Shown here piece by piece: positions 39,248 through 45,987 of a DNA stretch of 64,000 nucleotides (position 1 is its first letter; each line of letters opens with the position of its first letter). The notes beneath the pieces were generated by a model. That model saw nothing but the letters and a program-made list of their open reading frames with translations, made no database searches and was not told the DNA's origin. The stretch lies in assembly GCA_965223545.1 (NCBI GenBank), contig OZ245006.1:4288001-4352000 (forward strand), in the 5' to 3' direction. The DNA is from Planctomycetota bacterium. Lineage in GTDB: Bacteria > Planctomycetota > UBA1135 > UBA2386. A program made the position numbers and the translations under genes.

Positions 39248-40198
39248 CTAACCCAACCGGCGGGGGACGCGATGGTCGGCCAGGGCGTGAAACGCCCACA
39301 CCGTGCTCACCACCGCCAGCGCCGGAAACACCCACACGTGCCAAACTCCGTGCAGAGCGGGTTCTTTGCTGCGGGCGAGGATCGTCCCCCACGACTCGTT
39401 GCCGCCCAGGCCCAAGAATGCGAGTGTGGCCTCGATGACGATGGCGCCGGCGAACAAGAACGCGGCGTTGACGCGGATCGGTCCCGCGGCGTTGGGCAGG
39501 ATGTGGTGGCTGAGGATGCGCCACGAGCTGACCCCGAGCCCGCGCGCCGCCAGGACGAATTCGCGCTCGCGAAGCCCGAGCACCTCGCCGCGGACCAGCC
39601 TGGCGAACGTTGTCCAGAACACGCCGCCGAGAATGATCATCACCGCCAGCGGCGAGTTGCCGAACAGGGCGGCCGCGATGAGCACGGCGAACAGGCCGGG
39701 GAAGCAGAGAAAGATCTCGATCAACAGCGAGATCACCGCGTCGATCCAGCCGCCGTGATACCCCGCCAGCGCTCCGAGCGGCACGCCGATCAGGGCGCTG
39801 AGCAGGACGGTCCCCGCGGCGATGTAGAAAGCGGTCTGCGTTCCCCACAGGATCCGCGACAGCAGGTCTCGCCCGACGTCGTCGATGCCGAACGGGTGTT
39901 CCAGGCTGGGTGGCTCGTTGCGGCGTTCGATGGCGCGGTCCATCAGCGGGCCGTATGGCCACGGCGGCATCACTGCCCAGTCATCGCTGTCGGTCGGCAG
40001 CGCCGCCCACCATTCGTTCCAGGTCTCGATCCGGTCCCGATAGGGGCCGATCGCGGCTTGCCCGGTGTAGGACGCGAACGCCGGGAAGCGCAGCGCGCCG
40101 TCGATCCGGGCGACGATCGGCACGTCGTTGGCGATCAAGGGGGCGAGCAGGGCGATGGCGAACAGCAGGCCGACCCACGCTGCAGCGATCCGCTTCAT
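39248..40198 (-). CDS. Peptide/nickel ABC permease (DppC/OppC-like)
   Basis: HPFGIDDVGRDLLSR, EFVLAARGLG, HILPN, LAFLGLG. Confidence 0.93.
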   Translation of the reverse strand: MKRIAAAWVGLLFAIALLAPLIANDVPIVARIDGALRFPAFASYTGQAAIGPYRDRIETWNEWWAALPTDSDDWAVMPPWPYGPLMDRAIERRNEPPSLEHPFGIDDVGRDLLSRILWGTQTAFYIAAGTVLLSALIGVPLGALAGYHGGWIDAVISLLIEIFLCFPGLFAVLIAAALFGNSPLAVMIILGGVFWTTFARLVRGEVLGLREREFVLAARGLGVSSWRILSHHILPNAAGPIRVNAAFLFAGAIVIEATLAFLGLGGNESWGTILARSKEPALHGVWHVWVFPALAVVSTVWAFHALADHRVPRRLG

Positions 40199-41208
40199 CG
40201 GAGCCGGATCCTCGGGTCGACGACGCGGTGCAGCACGTCGGACAAGACCAAGCTCACCAGGGTGACGATCGCGACCAGCACCGTCATCGCCATCACCATG
40301 GGATACTCTTGCGCCATCGCGGCTTCGAACGCGAGCCGGCCGAGCCCAGGGAGCGAGAACACGTTCTCGACGACCACGGATCCGCTGATCATCGCCGGCA
40401 GCAAGACGCCGAGGAGGGTGACCAGTGGCGACAGGCCGTTGTGCAGGGCGCTGCGTCGCACGGTGCGCTCCGGCAGCCCCCAACCGCGCATCGCGCTTGC
40501 GAACTCCTGGGTCGCTGCCCGCGCGACCGAATCGCGCACGAACCGAGTCACGTAGACGCACGGACCGATCGCGAGGGCGGTCACCGGCAGGACCAAGTGG
40601 CAGCCCATGTCGAGGGCGCGCTCCCAGAGCGGCCACTGCTCGGCACCGATCGACATCAGGCCACGGCCCGGCAGCAGGGCGGGCCCCCAGCCGCCGGCGA
40701 ACGCGAGCAGGAGGAGCGTGGCGGCGAGGAACTCCGGTACGCCGTAGGCGATGAACAAGAGGGCGGCCGCGCCCCGGTCGAGCCAGCCGCCGGCGATCAT
40801 GCCGAGGCGGGCGCCGAGCGGGATGGCGATGCCCAGGCCCAACAGCAGCGCCAGCCCGTTGACCAGCAGGGTCACCGGCAAGGCCTCGGCGATGCGCTCG
40901 CGAAAGCGCGCCCGGTTCTCGCCCGGTCCCGCGAAATCGAGGCGGCAGGCGCGCGTCAGCCAGCCCCAATAGCGCACCCACACCGAGTAGGGTTGCTTGG
41001 TCTCCGGGTCGGCCATGCCCCAGTGAACGCGCAGGGCATCGAGCGCCTCGCGGGAAGTCCTGGCACCCGACTCGAGGTTGTGGCCGGTGGCGAGCTCGGC
41101 GCGATCGGAGGGCGCCAGGTCCATCAACAAGAACGTCAACAGCGTGATGCCGATCAACGCCGGCACCATGCGCAAGAGGCGCTTCGTCAGGTAGACGACC
41201 AGCGGCAC
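40195..41208 (-). CDS. Peptide/nickel ABC permease (DppB/OppB-like)
   Basis: YLTKRLL, HLVLP, GSVVVENVFSLPGLGRL, DPRIR. Confidence 0.93.
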   Translation of the reverse strand: MPLVVYLTKRLLRMVPALIGITLLTFLLMDLAPSDRAELATGHNLESGARTSREALDALRVHWGMADPETKQPYSVWVRYWGWLTRACRLDFAGPGENRARFRERIAEALPVTLLVNGLALLLGLGIAIPLGARLGMIAGGWLDRGAAALLFIAYGVPEFLAATLLLLAFAGGWGPALLPGRGLMSIGAEQWPLWERALDMGCHLVLPVTALAIGPCVYVTRFVRDSVARAATQEFASAMRGWGLPERTVRRSALHNGLSPLVTLLGVLLPAMISGSVVVENVFSLPGLGRLAFEAAMAQEYPMVMAMTVLVAIVTLVSLVLSDVLHRVVDPRIRLR

Positions 41209-41216
41209 CGCTCCGG

Positions 41217-42005
41217 TCAGCGTCCCTCGATCGCCTGCAGAATGGCGTCGCGCGTGTCGACCCAGCCGTCCTCGGGGCGCTCGCCGTTGCGGAACTCGAG
41301 CGTCAGGATGCCGACGCCGCGGTCGCGGCCGAGCCACGAGCCGAGCGAGCCCGGCGTGCCGTGCAGCTGTTCCGAGGCGACGAGTGGAAAGCCGCTGGCC
41401 TCGGCGAAACGACGCGCATCCGCCTCGGCGGCCCCATCCCAGTTGATGAAGCGCCCGCGGCGGGCCGAGTGCGCGACGATGACCAAGTCGGGCGCGAGGT
41501 CGAGGATCAGTTGGTGCAGCGCCTTGGCCTCGGGTTGGTCCAGCGGCTGCCGACCGGTGGTGCGACTGGAGCGGAAGTTGCTCGCCGGGAAGTTGCGGTT
41601 GAGGTCGACGCCGTTGGCATTGCCGCGAGTGCCGGCGGCGGAGCCGTCCGGGTTGACGTCTTCGACGATCGACAGCGTCACCCGGTCGCCGAGCCCTTGG
41701 GCGGCGAACGCCCCCGGCAGCGCATCAGTGGCGACGCTGCCTTCGCGCTCATTGCCGTGGATGCCACCGACCCACAGCACGCGCCGCGGTCCGCCGCCGA
41801 TGTGCCTCACCAGCAAGGGCCGGCCTTCGACCGAAAAGCCGAACGTCTGCCATGCACTGGGCCGGGTGGCGCGGCCGGTGGCTCGTTCCGAGCTGCGCGT
41901 CGCCACCGGTTCTTCCTCCGGACGCAGTGGCTCGTGCTGGATCGGGCGCGGCAGGACGCAACCCCCCACGCCAAGGAGAAGAACGCAGGCGGCGAGCCGG
42001 AGCAT
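41217..42005 (-). CDS. M14 murein peptide amidase A (MpaA)-like lipoprotein
   Basis: Lipobox-like LLLGVGGC, SVEGRPL, GIHGNE, NPDG, DLNRNFP, PGSLGSW, LTLE. Confidence 0.82.
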   Translation of the reverse strand: MLRLAACVLLLGVGGCVLPRPIQHEPLRPEEEPVATRSSERATGRATRPSAWQTFGFSVEGRPLLVRHIGGGPRRVLWVGGIHGNEREGSVATDALPGAFAAQGLGDRVTLSIVEDVNPDGSAAGTRGNANGVDLNRNFPASNFRSSRTTGRQPLDQPEAKALHQLILDLAPDLVIVAHSARRGRFINWDGAAEADARRFAEASGFPLVASEQLHGTPGSLGSWLGRDRGVGILTLEFRNGERPEDGWVDTRDAILQAIEGR

Positions 42006-42153
42006 GGTGGCAACCATAGCGAAGGGTCGGCCGCGTGTCCGTGTTCTGAATGAGCGCTTCGGCCCGCGATGCCGATACATCGCGCATGAACACGTGGCGG
42101 CGGGTGCACGAGCAGGCGTGGGGCGAGTGCCGACCCTGACTCCGCGACCCCTG

Positions 42154-42699
42154 ATGCTGGTTCCCCGGCGCCGTTGCGCGGCGTGCGGTGCCGCACAGGA
42201 CGTCGTCCGCATGGCGTTGGTGCGGCGCCAGTGGCTGTGCACGGGGTGTTTGCACGAGCCGCCGGTGGGGGGTCGCTCGAACCGGGAAGAAGTCGTCTCC
42301 GCTCTCCGCGCCGGCGAGGCCGAGCGCGTCGCCTGCCCTTTGCGTCGTGCAGCGCGCGCCGCGCGGCACGCGACGGTGGTCGCGCGCGCGGTCGGCTACG
42401 GCTTGTTGGCTGCGTGGGCGGCCCATTCCCCGGCCGGCATGGCGGTCCTCACCGGAGTGCTGATCGGCGACGCGCTGACCTGGGTGCTGACGTCGTGGGT
42501 CGCGCTGGTGCGCGGCCACGGCCACTTCTGGATCGAACTGGCCCTGTTTCTCGCCATCGGCGCCTGGTGGACGCACCACGGTGGCCTCGAGCTACCGGCC
42601 GACACCGAGGGCCGCGCGACGGTCATGTTCGTCGGCATGGCGCTGTTCTCGGGCAAGGCAATCGCATTCGCGCTGAAGCTCCTGCACCGCGAAACGTGA
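42154..42699 (+). CDS. Hypothetical membrane protein with N-terminal Zn-ribbon
   Basis: CAAC...CTGC followed by about 4 hydrophobic helices. Confidence 0.65.
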   Translation: MLVPRRRCAACGAAQDVVRMALVRRQWLCTGCLHEPPVGGRSNREEVVSALRAGEAERVACPLRRAARAARHATVVARAVGYGLLAAWAAHSPAGMAVLTGVLIGDALTWVLTSWVALVRGHGHFWIELALFLAIGAWWTHHGGLELPADTEGRATVMFVGMALFSGKAIAFALKLLHRET

Positions 42700-42729
42700 T
42701 GAAGGTACGGAGCCTGAAGGTACGGAGCC
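42700..42729 (+). repeat. Tandem 15-mer x2 (left arm of a REP-like palindrome)
   Basis: TGAAGGTACGGAGCC at 42700-42714 and 42715-42729. Confidence 0.9.
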
Positions 42730-42731
42730 AG

Positions 42732-42975
42732 TCCTGCCCCGGCAGATTTGTCGGCCCTTCAGGGCAGGAAACTAGCCGCTGAGGAAGGGGGAGGGGAACG
42801 TGTGAGGGGCCCGGCAGCTACGCCCCCAATAGCCACTGGAGCACGTTTGCCCCAGAGCCAGTCTGGGTCCGAGTTGGCCATCCTTCACTGGTGAGGGGCA
42901 CGTCGCCGTGCCCACTCCCGCAGGTCAGATTCGTTTGATCGCCGCCTCGGGCCGGGCCCACCACAACAATGAGGA
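42732..42975 (+). ncRNA. Candidate IS110 bridge/seek RNA
   Basis: Non-coding end with hairpins (TCCTGCCC/GGGCAGGA; CCCAGA/TCTGGG) and internal copies of both junction sequences. Confidence 0.55.
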
Positions 42976-42981
42976 TGAAGT

Positions 42982-44364
42982 ATGGCTGGGAAGAGCAGAA
43001 CGAGGAAGGGCAAGAAGCCCGCAGCGGAAGTATTGCCAGTCGTGAAGCCCAACGCCGCCGGAATCGACATCGGCAGCCGCGAGCACTGGGTGTGCGCAGC
43101 AGCACCCGACGGCAGTCGTCCGATCAAGCGATTCGGAACGACGACGCCCCAGCTAGAGGCGCTCGCGGACTGGCTGGAGGAGCTCGGAGTGCGATCCGTC
43201 GCGATGGAGAGCACCTATGTCTACTGGATTCCCGTCTACGAGCTACTCGAGTCGAGAGGCTTCGAGGTCATCCTCGCGAATGCCCGCGAGGTGAAGAACG
43301 TGCCGGGCCGCTCCAAGTCCGATGCCAGCGATTGCAGTTGGCTGCAGAAGCTACACACCTATGGCCTCATTCGCGCTTCGTTCCGGCCTCCGAAGGACAT
43401 CTGTGCGTTGCGGACCCTGCAACGCCATGCCGCGTCTTTGATCGCGCAGCGCACGCGCCACACGCAGTTGATGCAGCGGTCACTGGATCAGATGAACGTG
43501 GCGATCCATCGCGCGGTAACGGACATCACCGGCAAGACCGGCCTCGCGATCATCCGCGCGATTCTCGCTGGTGAACGCGACCCTCGAGCGCTCGCCAGAC
43601 TGCGTGATCCGCGCTGCAAGATCTCCGAGAAGGAGCTCGCGGATCACTTGCAAGGGACCTGGATCGAGGAGCACATCTTCACTCTCGCTTCGGGCTTGCG
43701 GATGCTCGAGCACACCGACCACGAGATCGAGTCGGTCGAGAAGCGATTGATGGCGATGATCGAGGACCTGCAACCGGAGGAAGCCAAGACGGCCGACGTC
43801 CCCGAGCATCCAGACCCCCGCAAGGAGAGGAGCATCCGAACGAAGGGCGGCCGGGAGCTTCGCGATGCCCTCTGCCGGCTCGTCGGGTGTGATCTCACGC
43901 GAATCGACGGTATCAGCCCGAGCACGGCCATGATCGTGCTCACCGAGGTCGGCTACGACCTCGATGCTTTCCCGACCGAGAAGCACTTCGTCTCCTGGCT
44001 ACGCCTGTGCCCACGTCAAGCCGTCTCGGGTGGAAAGCGCATCAAGAAGCACCGCAACAACATCGCGGTCAGCAGGATCGCCACGGTCCTCCGGATGGCC
44101 GCCCTGTCCCTCCAACGTACTCAGACAGCTCTCGGCGCACACTTCCGCAAGATCGCCCGCGCGAAGGACGGCAACGTCGCCATCTTTGCCATCGCCCGCA
44201 AACTGGCCCTGCTCATCTACCGCATGCTGAAGTTCGGCCAGGACTACGTAGACGAAGGCGCCAAGGCCTACGAGGAGCGCTTCACCCAGCGACGCATCGT
44301 CGGACTCCGACAGAACGCTAAATCCCTCGGGTACAAGCTCGTACCGATCGCCGAGGCTGGGTGA
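42982..44364 (+). CDS. IS110 DEDD recombinase/transposase
   Basis: GIDIG, AMEST, KSDASD (DEDD). C-terminal LTRIDGI...F..WLRLCPRQAVSGG...AIARKLA. Confidence 0.96.
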   Translation: MAGKSRTRKGKKPAAEVLPVVKPNAAGIDIGSREHWVCAAAPDGSRPIKRFGTTTPQLEALADWLEELGVRSVAMESTYVYWIPVYELLESRGFEVILANAREVKNVPGRSKSDASDCSWLQKLHTYGLIRASFRPPKDICALRTLQRHAASLIAQRTRHTQLMQRSLDQMNVAIHRAVTDITGKTGLAIIRAILAGERDPRALARLRDPRCKISEKELADHLQGTWIEEHIFTLASGLRMLEHTDHEIESVEKRLMAMIEDLQPEEAKTADVPEHPDPRKERSIRTKGGRELRDALCRLVGCDLTRIDGISPSTAMIVLTEVGYDLDAFPTEKHFVSWLRLCPRQAVSGGKRIKKHRNNIAVSRIATVLRMAALSLQRTQTALGAHFRKIARAKDGNVAIFAIARKLALLIYRMLKFGQDYVDEGAKAYEERFTQRRIVGLRQNAKSLGYKLVPIAEAG

Positions 44365-44374
44365 GTTTCAGGTC

Positions 44375-44406
44375 AGGCTCCGTACCGTCAAGGCTCCGTA
44401 CCGTCA
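44375..44406 (+). repeat. Tandem 16-mer x2 (right arm, inverted relative to 42700-42729)
   Basis: AGGCTCCGTACCGTCA at 44375-44390 and 44391-44406. Reverse complement is TGACGGTACGGAGCCT. Confidence 0.9.
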
Positions 44407-45249
44407 GTGGATCTTGTCGACGCGGCGGACTGCGAGCTGGTAGATGTCGACGCAGTAGTCGTCCTCGATGGTCGCGCGCACGGTGAAGCGGCCGGTGACG
44501 AGGACTGGGTCGAAGTCGTAGTCGATGGTTTCGCCCTCGGGCATCACGCAGCGGACGACGCCGTTGATGTTCGGCGGTTGGCCGTAGCAGCAGGACCACA
44601 ACGAGTCGACGAGGAGGAACTCTCTCATGTTCTCGACGGCGTCGAGGGGCAGCATGAAGCCGAGCAAGCTCACGTCCTGTCCCGACAACGAGAGGACGCT
44701 CGGTGGCGCGCCGATCAGTCCTTCGGTGTACTCCCAGTCGGCCAACCGATCGAAGTGCAACAGCTCTTCGCTCGAGTCGAGCTCGCCGGCCGCGAGCCGT
44801 GCGGCGAGCCGGCGCTCGGCTTCGAGCATCGCCTCCGCGCTCCGCATCGCCGCGAGGTCGGCGGGATCGGTGCCCTTGGGGTGCTGCGCGTCCTCGGGGT
44901 TCTGTGCCCCATCGCTCGCTGCCGGTGCGTCCGCCGTGCGCGGCGTGACGTGCGGCGAAACGGCGATGACCGGTGCTGCGCGCTCCGGGCCCATCGACGC
45001 TGGCGCGGGCGCGCGCTCGCGTTCCATCAACGCGACGCTGACCGTGGTCAAGAGTCCCAAGGGAATGACCGCGGCCGCCAGCTGGGTGCGACTCCAGCGC
45101 GAACGCCGCGCGCGCGCGGCGCCGCTGCCGCGCCGCACCCGCGCGAGGATCGCCTGCGACTGGTCGGGCGGCGTGCTCTTTCCCGTGGCCTCGTCGAACA
45201 GCTGCTGTAGGTGTTGGTGCTCGACGTCTGGTCGAAGGTCTTCCGTCAT
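44404..45249 (-). CDS. Putative anti-sigma factor with extracytoplasmic DUF3299-like domain
   Basis: ATGA-coupled to the ECF sigma gene, short N-domain, one TM, C-terminal GFMLPL...EFLLV...SCCYGQPP. Confidence 0.75.
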   Translation of the reverse strand: MTEDLRPDVEHQHLQQLFDEATGKSTPPDQSQAILARVRRGSGAARARRSRWSRTQLAAAVIPLGLLTTVSVALMERERAPAPASMGPERAAPVIAVSPHVTPRTADAPAASDGAQNPEDAQHPKGTDPADLAAMRSAEAMLEAERRLAARLAAGELDSSEELLHFDRLADWEYTEGLIGAPPSVLSLSGQDVSLLGFMLPLDAVENMREFLLVDSLWSCCYGQPPNINGVVRCVMPEGETIDYDFDPVLVTGRFTVRATIEDDYCVDIYQLAVRRVDKIH

Positions 45250-45749
45250 GATTCGTCTCCGTGCATCTGTTGCTCGATGCATGCGCGCAGCGCGGTGCGC
45301 GCGCGGGCCAGCATCGATTTGAATCCCTGAGCGCCGATCCCTAGACGGGCGGCGGCATCGCGATACTTGATCCCCTCGACGTGGTGCCACTCGAGCGCCT
45401 GTCTGGCGCGGGGACCGAGCCGCGTGAGGCAGTGCCGCAGCGCATCGATCCGGTCGTCGTCGAGCGCGGTCGGGCTGTGGGCAACGAAACCGTCGACGGC
45501 GTCGGCCCAGTCGAGGTCGAGCGGTTGGCGGCGCCGGCGGCGGCCGATCAGCGCGTTGCGGGCGACACTGCGCAGGTAGGCCTTTGGATGGCGCAACTCC
45601 TCGCCGTCGCGCAGTGCCTCGGCGGCGCGCACGAACGCGTCTTGGGTGAGGTCGTCGGCTTCCTCGGGTGTGCCCCCCAACAGGCGCAAGTAGCGCCACA
45701 CCATGGCCTGATGCGCGCGCACCAAGTCGGCCAGCGCATCGGTGTCCAT
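45246..45749 (-). CDS. ECF sigma-70 family factor
   Basis: VWRYLRLLG...ADDLTQDAF...AYLRSVARN (region 2) and EGIKYRDAAARLG...LARAR (region 4). Start uncertain. Confidence 0.9.
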   Translation of the reverse strand: MDTDALADLVRAHQAMVWRYLRLLGGTPEEADDLTQDAFVRAAEALRDGEELRHPKAYLRSVARNALIGRRRRRQPLDLDWADAVDGFVAHSPTALDDDRIDALRHCLTRLGPRARQALEWHHVEGIKYRDAAARLGIGAQGFKSMLARARTALRACIEQQMHGDES

Positions 45750-45987
45750 CGGCCTCGCCCGGCGCCGCCCCTGATCGTCGGTCGGCGCGCGGCGGCGCGC
45801 GCGCGGTCGCTGCGCGATCGTCATGCTGACACAGTGCGCCAACCGGTCGAATGGGGTGCAGGACTTCGCGGTTTTTGCCCGTGCGGCCCGGCGCAGGCGT
45901 TGTGGACGGCGGTTGCGGTGCCAACGCGCTCGTCCGCAAATCGTTATGATCGAGCCGAGTTCGTTCCCGGCTCCAGGAGGTCGAGCG

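Follow-up and report, generated by a model that had tools for sequence, protein, structure and literature searches.

An IS110-family insertion sequence at the centre of a REP-like palindrome and its predicted bridge RNA in a Planctomycetota genome

Introduction

In a stretch of 64,000 nucleotides from the genome of a Planctomycetota bacterium (contig OZ245006.1, positions 4,288,001 to 4,352,000; in the following, the window), an insertion sequence (IS) of the IS110 family is located between two convergent genes and flanked on both sides by doubled repeat arms. An earlier note on this DNA interpreted the arms as the two halves of a palindrome similar to repetitive extragenic palindromic (REP) elements, and the IS as an insertion into its symmetry centre. 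The locus raises the question whether these repeats are the target of the element or its own ends, and what could lead a mobile element to the very centre of a palindrome.

Our answer is that 23 near-identical copies of an IS110-group element are located at the AG centre of a genome-specific REP-like palindrome, presumably by bridge-RNA-guided recombination, which we predict from sequence comparison. We assign a probability of about 85% to this reading. The bridge RNA of IS110 elements, the logic of its guides and the targeting of REPs were published for IS621 (cited sections of PMC11208160 and PMC11208158), and REPs have long been known as IS110 targets (cited section of PMC1525189). Clearly, homing of IS110 elements to REPs by a bridge RNA is already established, and the locus is a natural example of a known arrangement. 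It offers naturally occurring data on how a distant branch of bridge recombinases selects its targets: the 23 copies look active, about 110 targets are unused, the target is asymmetric at one base, and the guides can be read from covariation.

Results and Discussion

An IS110-group element splits a palindrome

The element is an IS110-family insertion sequence of the IS110 group. Its transposase exceeds the cut-offs of all three models concerned, namely PF01548 (E = 1.3e-26, 93.6 bits vs. cut-off 29, residues 26-171), PF02371 (E = 6.4e-14, 52.5 bits vs. 21.3) and the NCBIfam model NF033542, "IS110 family RNA-guided transposase" (248.2 bits vs. 140), which bears out the family assignment made from the letters. 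As was expected of such an element, terminal inverted repeats are absent: when the first 12 nt are compared with the last 12 nt in reverse complement, 1 position of 12 agrees. The non-coding left end measures 250 nt and the right end 10 nt plus the core, an asymmetry that distinguishes the IS110 group from IS1111. AG is present at both junctions in all 23 copies of the genome, and a single AG is found at empty sites. The element comprises 42730-44376, i.e., 1,645 bp with one AG counted, without any longer target duplication. The triplet CAG, which had been proposed as the shared sequence, indeed occurs at both junctions (42729-42731 and 44374-44376), but judged from relatives of the element the repeated, constant core is AG only.

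The doubled and nearly reverse-complementary flanks described before were recovered at their exact coordinates. TGAAGGTACGGAGCC occupies 42700-42714 and 42715-42729, AGGCTCCGTACCGTCA occupies 44375-44390 and 44391-44406, and the right unit differs from the reverse complement of the left unit in 1 of 15 bases. Over the whole window, GGTACGGAGCC with at most one mismatch has 6 matches vs. 1.35 expected, a number reached by 1 of 100 shuffles; the four exact matches are all arms flanking the IS. Rejoining the flanks at one AG rebuilds a hairpin of 62 nt, where ~60-65 bp had been predicted, with a DNA folding energy of -30.4 kcal/mol vs. -20.0 kcal/mol for a single unit. Its centre is a single A, as in the 85 uninterrupted copies described below. 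The other centre that had been considered, AGGTCA, was rejected: it is the right end of the IS in all 23 copies and in relatives from other genomes. The position between convergent genes was confirmed as well, with one stop codon adjoining the first arm and the other lying inside the last arm (Table 1).

A lineage-specific palindromic repeat family

The host genome comprises 8.1 Mb in 2 contigs with 69.7% G+C; C1 is a contig label in the coordinates below. A genome-wide search for the repeat, as recommended in the earlier note, yields 85 exact GGAGCC-A/T-GGCTCC centres without any IS (107 empty centres with one mismatch, plus 22 occupied ones). Altogether, the family consists of about 130 centres, many of which adjoin gene ends. 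Two arm types can be distinguished, X = tgaNGTACGGAGCC and Y = gtgatgaaNCGGAGCC, and units are either symmetric (X-X') or asymmetric (X-A-Y'). Many units are paired as inverted doublets (X A Y' loop Y T X') that resemble REPINs (REP doublets forming hairpins) and give long hairpins, e.g., the doublet at C1:769843 with a DNA folding energy of -70.9 kcal/mol. Among 94 empty GAGCC-A/T-GGCTC centres, 60 have at least one long open reading frame (ORF) ending within 22 nt, where long ORFs have at least 100 codons and a high third-position G+C. ORFs end on both sides at 11 centres and on neither side at 34. In 27 cases genome-wide, the arm's own TGA provides the stop codon of a long ORF.

The 17-mer centre GTACGGAGCCAGGCTCC occurs 79 times here. 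In 40 related genomes (24 from the same family and 16 from the same order, all belonging to other genera) it occurs once in each of two and is absent from the other 38. Within this sample the repeat family is specific to this lineage, in agreement with what had been supposed. Its arms carry GTAC(G/C)G or GATTCATCAC, and the GT(A/G)G head of Nunvar 2010, which was defined on gammaproteobacterial REPs (cited section of PMC2817692), is not found in them. In its behaviour, the repeat is like a REP family.

Tandem arms as in the window are also present on both sides of the unoccupied doublet C1:4241087-4241223, on one side of the occupied copy C1:1015110, and at C1:5177912. Since an unoccupied locus carries them, the doubling is a pre-existing repeat variant and not a product of the insertion; the doubled form can be read as a unit placed inside the centre of a second one. 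Doubled arms were searched for with a strict regular expression, since the 782 matches of a loose one were meaningless.

Copies of the element and their flanks

The genome contains 23 full-length copies of the IS at 99.4-100% identity, and one 111-bp fragment. The 460-aa ORF is intact in all 23. They differ at 12 variable sites, none of which falls inside the guide segments introduced below, and form subfamilies of 17 and 6 copies. A comparison of their flanks, likewise recommended before, shows that, with all copies set in one orientation, the left flank ends with GAGCC in 23 of 23 copies, followed by AG, and the right flank starts with GCTCC in 22 of 23. The outer arms vary. The left one is of the GTAC type in 22 copies and of the GAATC type in one; the right one is of the GTACC type in some copies and of the GATTCATCAC type in others. 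Outside the arms, the DNA of the copies is unrelated.

At C1:4826057-4829692, 172 bp of left flank together with the IS are duplicated in tandem, and the right end of the first copy is joined to a non-cognate site that has only the AG core in common. This could be the outcome of off-target or half-matched recombination between sister copies. At C1:1714944-1718281, two tandem IS copies lie 45 bp apart and fill both centres of one inverted doublet; in the second copy, unlike the other 22, the arm on the left is of the Y type. Finally, C1:988112-988240 is an IS relic in which bases 270-380 almost abut the right end and a degenerate right arm comes next.

A predicted bridge RNA in the non-coding left end

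For a comparative analysis, 75 loci encoding related transposases were collected in a scan of reference genomes (labelled L with a number where needed). The closest relative has 78% protein identity; the next ones range at 52-58% and come mostly from Myxococcota metagenome genomes, some from other phyla. Left ends of relatives can be aligned with that of the window. A single-sequence fold of the left end is uninformative, and comparative analysis was therefore used instead. The alignment of 15 relatives shows a conserved two-loop RNA core consisting of a closing stem, a stem with an internal loop and a small hairpin, and a stem with an internal loop and a variable hairpin, in this order. In the consensus, 91.8% of the cells are paired, compared to 28.6-51.3% when the partners are slid against each other. 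Twelve pairs have changed on both sides vs. 6.5 +/- 1.5 in shuffles, and none of 500 shuffles reaches 12. The non-coding leader likely encodes a bridge RNA which would guide the element to the centre of the palindrome.

Relatives conserve two short motifs near the ends of the element, GTTTC (44365-44369, inside the right end) and GAAAC (42768-42772, in the left end). L016 has GTTAC and GTAAC instead; this joint change hints at a pairing between the two IS ends.

Candidate guides follow the flanks of each relative

The putative long target guide forms the 3' strand of the target loop. Its GAGCCAG repeats the left flank GAGCC plus AG. In the same columns, relatives carry their own left flank plus AG: GTGCCAG, GCTCTAG, AGCGTAG, AGGCTAG, GGGCAAG, AAACAAG and TTCTCAG. 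In 22 of 27 loci, the final 6-8 nt of the guide are found again immediately before the conserved left end; the remaining five loci are among the more distant relatives. In L018, L019 and L065, all from one other genome, the upstream sequences have only GCTCTAG in common, which is exactly their guide. The UC that follows the guide equals the first two bases of the left end, and the first of the two matches in 9 of 11 relatives. Its position resembles that of the "handshake" bases after the right target guide of IS621.

The putative long donor guide, on the 3' strand of the donor loop, is identical to the last 8 bases of the element, i.e., right end plus core. It changes in step in relatives with other right ends, e.g., to CACACTAG or CTGGTTAG, and equals the locus's own right end in 14 of the 16 loci that include a right end (9 of 11 families). 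L014 and L016 depart from this rule. In L014:2540-2580, from a Marinacidobacterales metagenome genome, the right end finishes with GGGCAAG, the locus's own left target, and the donor guide specifies GGGTCAG.

A short guide for the right target is less evident. The candidate AGCC on the 5' strand of the target loop is complementary to the core G plus GCT to the right of the insertion point. In this register, at least three bases are complementary in the window, L009, L015 and L025. Over nine families, 22 of 45 positions are complementary vs. 16.1 +/- 2.7, and 1.4% of 133,496 derangements score as high (p about 0.014), so that AGCC may tentatively be taken as the right-target guide. Another candidate was CACUGGAGC (42834-42842), whose GGAGC complements GCTCC. 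It was rejected on two grounds: L009 has the same bases at a different right flank, and in the small hairpin its G/A-G covaries with the pairing partner. On the left-end side of the donor, a possible guide is GGGGCA (42895-42900): in the window and in L009 it is complementary to left-end bases 4-9, with similar matches in L014 and L015.

Target specificity and orientation

Outside IS interiors, the genome has 1,946 GAGCCAG sites. None of the 1,835 that are neither REP centres nor IS junctions is occupied, and hence the 7-nt long guide alone cannot explain the specificity. Other AGAGCCAG sites are likewise free (0 of 294 occupied). Tentatively, we take about GAGCC-AG-GCT as the recognised target, which corresponds to GAGCCAGGCT when the short guide is included. 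The claim that the locus exposes the target of the element therefore stands in one part and has to be narrowed in another: the palindrome centre is used by the genome copies, but the recognised stretch is shorter than the 11-mer which had been named. Empty sites of the 10-mer GAGCCAGGCT number 104, and in 94 the sequence goes on as GAGCCAGGCTC; by inspection, about 89 of the 104 lie in REP context and 15 elsewhere. In REP context, 22 of 111 are occupied, compared to 0 of 15 outside (chance about 0.04).

The target is palindromic except for its central base. When the repeats are read so that the central base is A, the left arm is X in nearly all of them, and this accounts for the X arm on the left of 22 of the 23 copies. 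The Y arm is on the left of copy C1:1716589, and thus the X arm is not required for insertion.

Proposed mechanism

The following steps are modelled on the published mechanism of IS621. The element would excise as a circle in which one AG links the right end to the left end. The donor loop would recognise this right-end/left-end junction by pairing. The target loop would pair with one strand at GAGCC-AG and, less strongly, with the opposite strand at G-GCT. The recombinase, with its DEDD and Ser residues, would then exchange strands at the core, and on this proposal only AG appears at both ends. Because the target is palindromic apart from the central base, the central A, which gives AG on one strand and TG on the opposite one, would set the orientation of the insertion.

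Points against the proposed targeting

Several observations weigh against a bridge-RNA-guided insertion as proposed here. Beyond the 7-nt guide, we infer rather than read part of the target recognition, and the assignment of AGCC is tentative: in its register, 5 of 9 families have no match to their own right flank. For GGGGCA as a guide to the left-end side of the donor, no match was found in other families. A search of 42600-44500 against Rfam with E up to 10 returned no bridge-RNA family; the best match, a eukaryotic long non-coding RNA model with E = 0.52, is at chance level. Folded as a single sequence, the left end does not surpass its shuffles (z = -1.75). Among the copies, C1:4826229 has a non-cognate right flank and C1:1716589 the other (Y) arm type on the left.

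In addition, the empty-site allele that the earlier note had suggested looking for was found neither in related assemblies nor in contigs of public runs. No empty allele of the window's locus was found in the 40 related genomes, which show only chance-like matches of 25-108 bp and no orthologous locus. In contigs assembled from four public runs, no contig skips the IS; such contigs drop rare variants, and their silence therefore says nothing about excision. Contigs of the runs X1, X3 and X6 cross a junction into the IS, those of X5 cover no junction, and the depth over the IS is ~17x that of the flanks.

Alternative explanations

Recognition might instead be gated mainly by the target DNA itself, as a hairpin or cruciform with the insertion point at its tip, with only a small contribution from RNA pairing. 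Such a gate would be an extension of the "sequence-structure dual match" of ISPpu10, a REP-targeting IS110 element for which the target stem-loop was reported as a specificity determinant (cited part of the preprint 10.64898/2026.03.19.712850). Every used site is the dyad centre of a palindrome, rebuilt sites fold strongly as DNA (-20 to -71 kcal/mol), the long guide has 7 nt only, and the 15 non-REP copies of GAGCCAGGCT are all unoccupied. We nevertheless consider a mainly structural gate unlikely. The guide covaries with the left flank across families without visibly palindromic targets, the right flanks of L018, L019 and L065 being unrelated; the free non-REP 10-mers are probably located in genes, where insertions would be selected against; and the distribution is already explained by a sequence target of 10-12 bp. 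The hairpin may still contribute by its structure, but the distribution does not call for this.

The bridge-RNA reading treats the repeats as a target. Alternatively, they could be the element's own ends, either terminal inverted repeats or a shell carried along like a miniature inverted-repeat transposable element (MITE), given that a GAGCC...GCTCC-type sequence stands beside every copy. This is highly improbable. Uninterrupted palindromes exist (the 85 centres without IS) and the outer arms vary between copies, so that the repeats are the target and not element ends, as the earlier note had held; of the two findings that the note had named as refuting its reading, neither occurred. Moreover, the repeat contains no IS end sequence, the IS termini, compared over 12 bases each, do not form inverted repeats (1 of 12), and relatives elsewhere have quite different flanks which match their own guides.

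That insertion is unspecific and selection has spared only insertions in harmless intergenic repeats would suit the intergenic position of REPs (60 of 94 centres adjoin a long-ORF end), but selection cannot produce base-exact junctions, and with 23 of 23 insertions at the same base of the same motif, oriented by the central A, this explanation is excluded for practical purposes.

Comparison with known systems

The predicted system shares its overall design with IS621 of E. coli: a recombinase with DEDD and Tnp domains, non-coding ends that are long on the left and very short on the right, a core of 2 bp present at either end, a 5' stem-loop that precedes the target loop and then the donor loop, guides that repeat the left flank or the right end together with the core, REPs as natural targets, and two bases after a 3'-strand guide that match the partner DNA in a handshake-like manner. 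The differences concern polarity and guide layout. According to the cited section of PMC11208158, the core of IS621 is CT on the gene strand, the 5' strand of the loop carries a left target guide of 9 nt (nt 50-58), and the 3' strand carries a right target guide of 4 nt (nt 77-80) with the handshake bases after it. Here, AG stands on the transposase strand and CT opposite, the long guides are on the 3' strands, and the short candidate is on the 5' strand. Ending in AG, the long guides would pair with the CT-carrying strand, opposite the transposase gene. Read on the CT strand, the geometry would be that of IS621, with guide lengths swapped and genes inverted relative to the core. Further differences to IS621 are the 460-aa length of the protein and an insertion point that coincides with the dyad centre; the system here is predicted from sequence.

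ISPpu10 and ISPpu9 of Pseudomonas putida, ISPa11, ISPsy8 and ISRm19/22 are likewise multi-copy IS110-family elements with every copy inside one host REP family, at targets that are intergenic and often paired (cited parts of PMC1525189 and 10.64898/2026.03.19.712850). Host lineage and repeat sequence are different here. For ISPpu10, the stem-loop is described in the cited part as a 5' extension pairing with the left target, whereas here left and right targets pair with each other and the core is at the tip.

From the REP side, the repeat family agrees with the systems of REPs or REPINs and REP-associated tyrosine transposases (RAYTs) treated in the cited section of PMC2817692 in its short imperfect palindromes (~130 centres), its inverted doublets forming long hairpins, and a Y1 HUH transposase gene between two inverted copies, the downstream one overlapping the stop codon. 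It differs in three respects: the arms start with GTAC and not with a GT(A/G)G head, the Y1 protein has 333 aa with an extra C-terminal part and stays below the NCBIfam RAYT cut-off, and both repeats flanking the gene are occupied by the IS. The genome documents a REP/RAYT-type system beyond the classic gammaproteobacterial ones; here, convergent genes often take their stop codons from the repeats. Annotation of the genome gains an explanation of the repeat family and a prediction of possible further insertion sites.

Taken together, the element might belong to a clade (relatives mostly from Myxococcota and Acidobacteriota metagenome genomes) that runs a mirrored bridge RNA, with one central base deciding the orientation, and that has here become a parasite of a REP/RAYT system. 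We regard this combination as conceivable, yet doubtful as a whole. The mirrored guide layout is possibly undescribed so far; if true, long programmable guides would be located on the 3' strands of both loops and the cargo would be inverted relative to the core polarity of IS621. If the parasite part is true, the IS could invert or carry off the RAYT-like gene.

Features of the locus

The coordinates are collected in Table 1. In a Pfam search, no family match was obtained for the upstream ORF. The first three bases of the left arm provide a second in-frame TGA directly after its stop codon (42697-42702).

Table 1. Features at and around the insertion site (positions in the window).
Feature	Position	Strand	Remarks
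Upstream convergent ORF	39910..42699	+	929 aa; TGA stop 42697-42699 adjoins first repeat arm
Left half of split palindrome	42700..42729	+	TGAAGGTACGGAGCC x2, 15-nt tandem arms; final GAGCC = left target
Left AG core dinucleotide	42730..42731	+	Common to target and element; 23/23 copies, also relatives
Non-coding left end of IS	42732..42981	+	250 nt; 5' stem-loop, then predicted bridge RNA
Two-loop RNA core (predicted bridge RNA)	42804..42964	+	Closing stem, target-binding loop, donor-binding loop; 15 relatives aligned
Candidate short guide AGCC	42831..42834	+	5' strand of target loop; complementary to core G + GCT right of insertion point
Long target guide (predicted)	42855..42863	+	GAGCCAG (42855-42861), 3' strand of target loop = left flank GAGCC + AG; then UC
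Long donor guide (predicted)	42921..42928	+	CAGGTCAG, 3' strand of donor loop = last 8 bases of element (right end + core)
IS110-family DEDD transposase / bridge recombinase gene	42982..44364	+	460 aa, intact
Short right end	44365..44376	+	GTTTCAGGTC, then right AG core copy (44375-44376)
Right half of split palindrome	44377..44406	+	GCTCCGTACCGTCA, A, GGCTCCGTACCGTCA; starting GCT(CC) = right target
Downstream convergent ORF	44404..45939	-	511 aa, DUF3299 at C-terminus; stop = TCA 44404-44406 within last arm

A RAYT-like gene and other Y1 elements

A Y1 HUH transposase gene encoding 333 aa was found at C1:3914532-3915533 (PF01797, 37.8 bits vs. cut-off 23). The best NCBIfam match of the protein is NF047646, REP-associated tyrosine transposase, with 63.5 bits and thus below the cut-off of 80. 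The gene lies between inverted Y arms, GGCTCCAATTCATCA upstream and TGATGAATCGGAGCC overlapping the stop codon. A Y1 gene flanked by two inverted repeats is the arrangement that defines REP/RAYT systems (cited section of PMC2817692). Both repeats beside the gene are occupied by the IS, in opposite orientations and with one copy of each subfamily (C1:3912821-3917192). The bracketed segment would therefore resemble a composite transposon or may be invertible.

Another Y1_Tnp gene, at C1:1729907, is not flanked by this repeat. RAYTs are usually single-copy. A second repeated element of ~750 bp is present on C1 in 12 copies at 90-95% identity (e.g., at 5691132, 7214346 and 1355010); its copies encode a partial Y1 domain match, for which the best NCBIfam model is again the REP-associated tyrosine transposase, with 37 bits.

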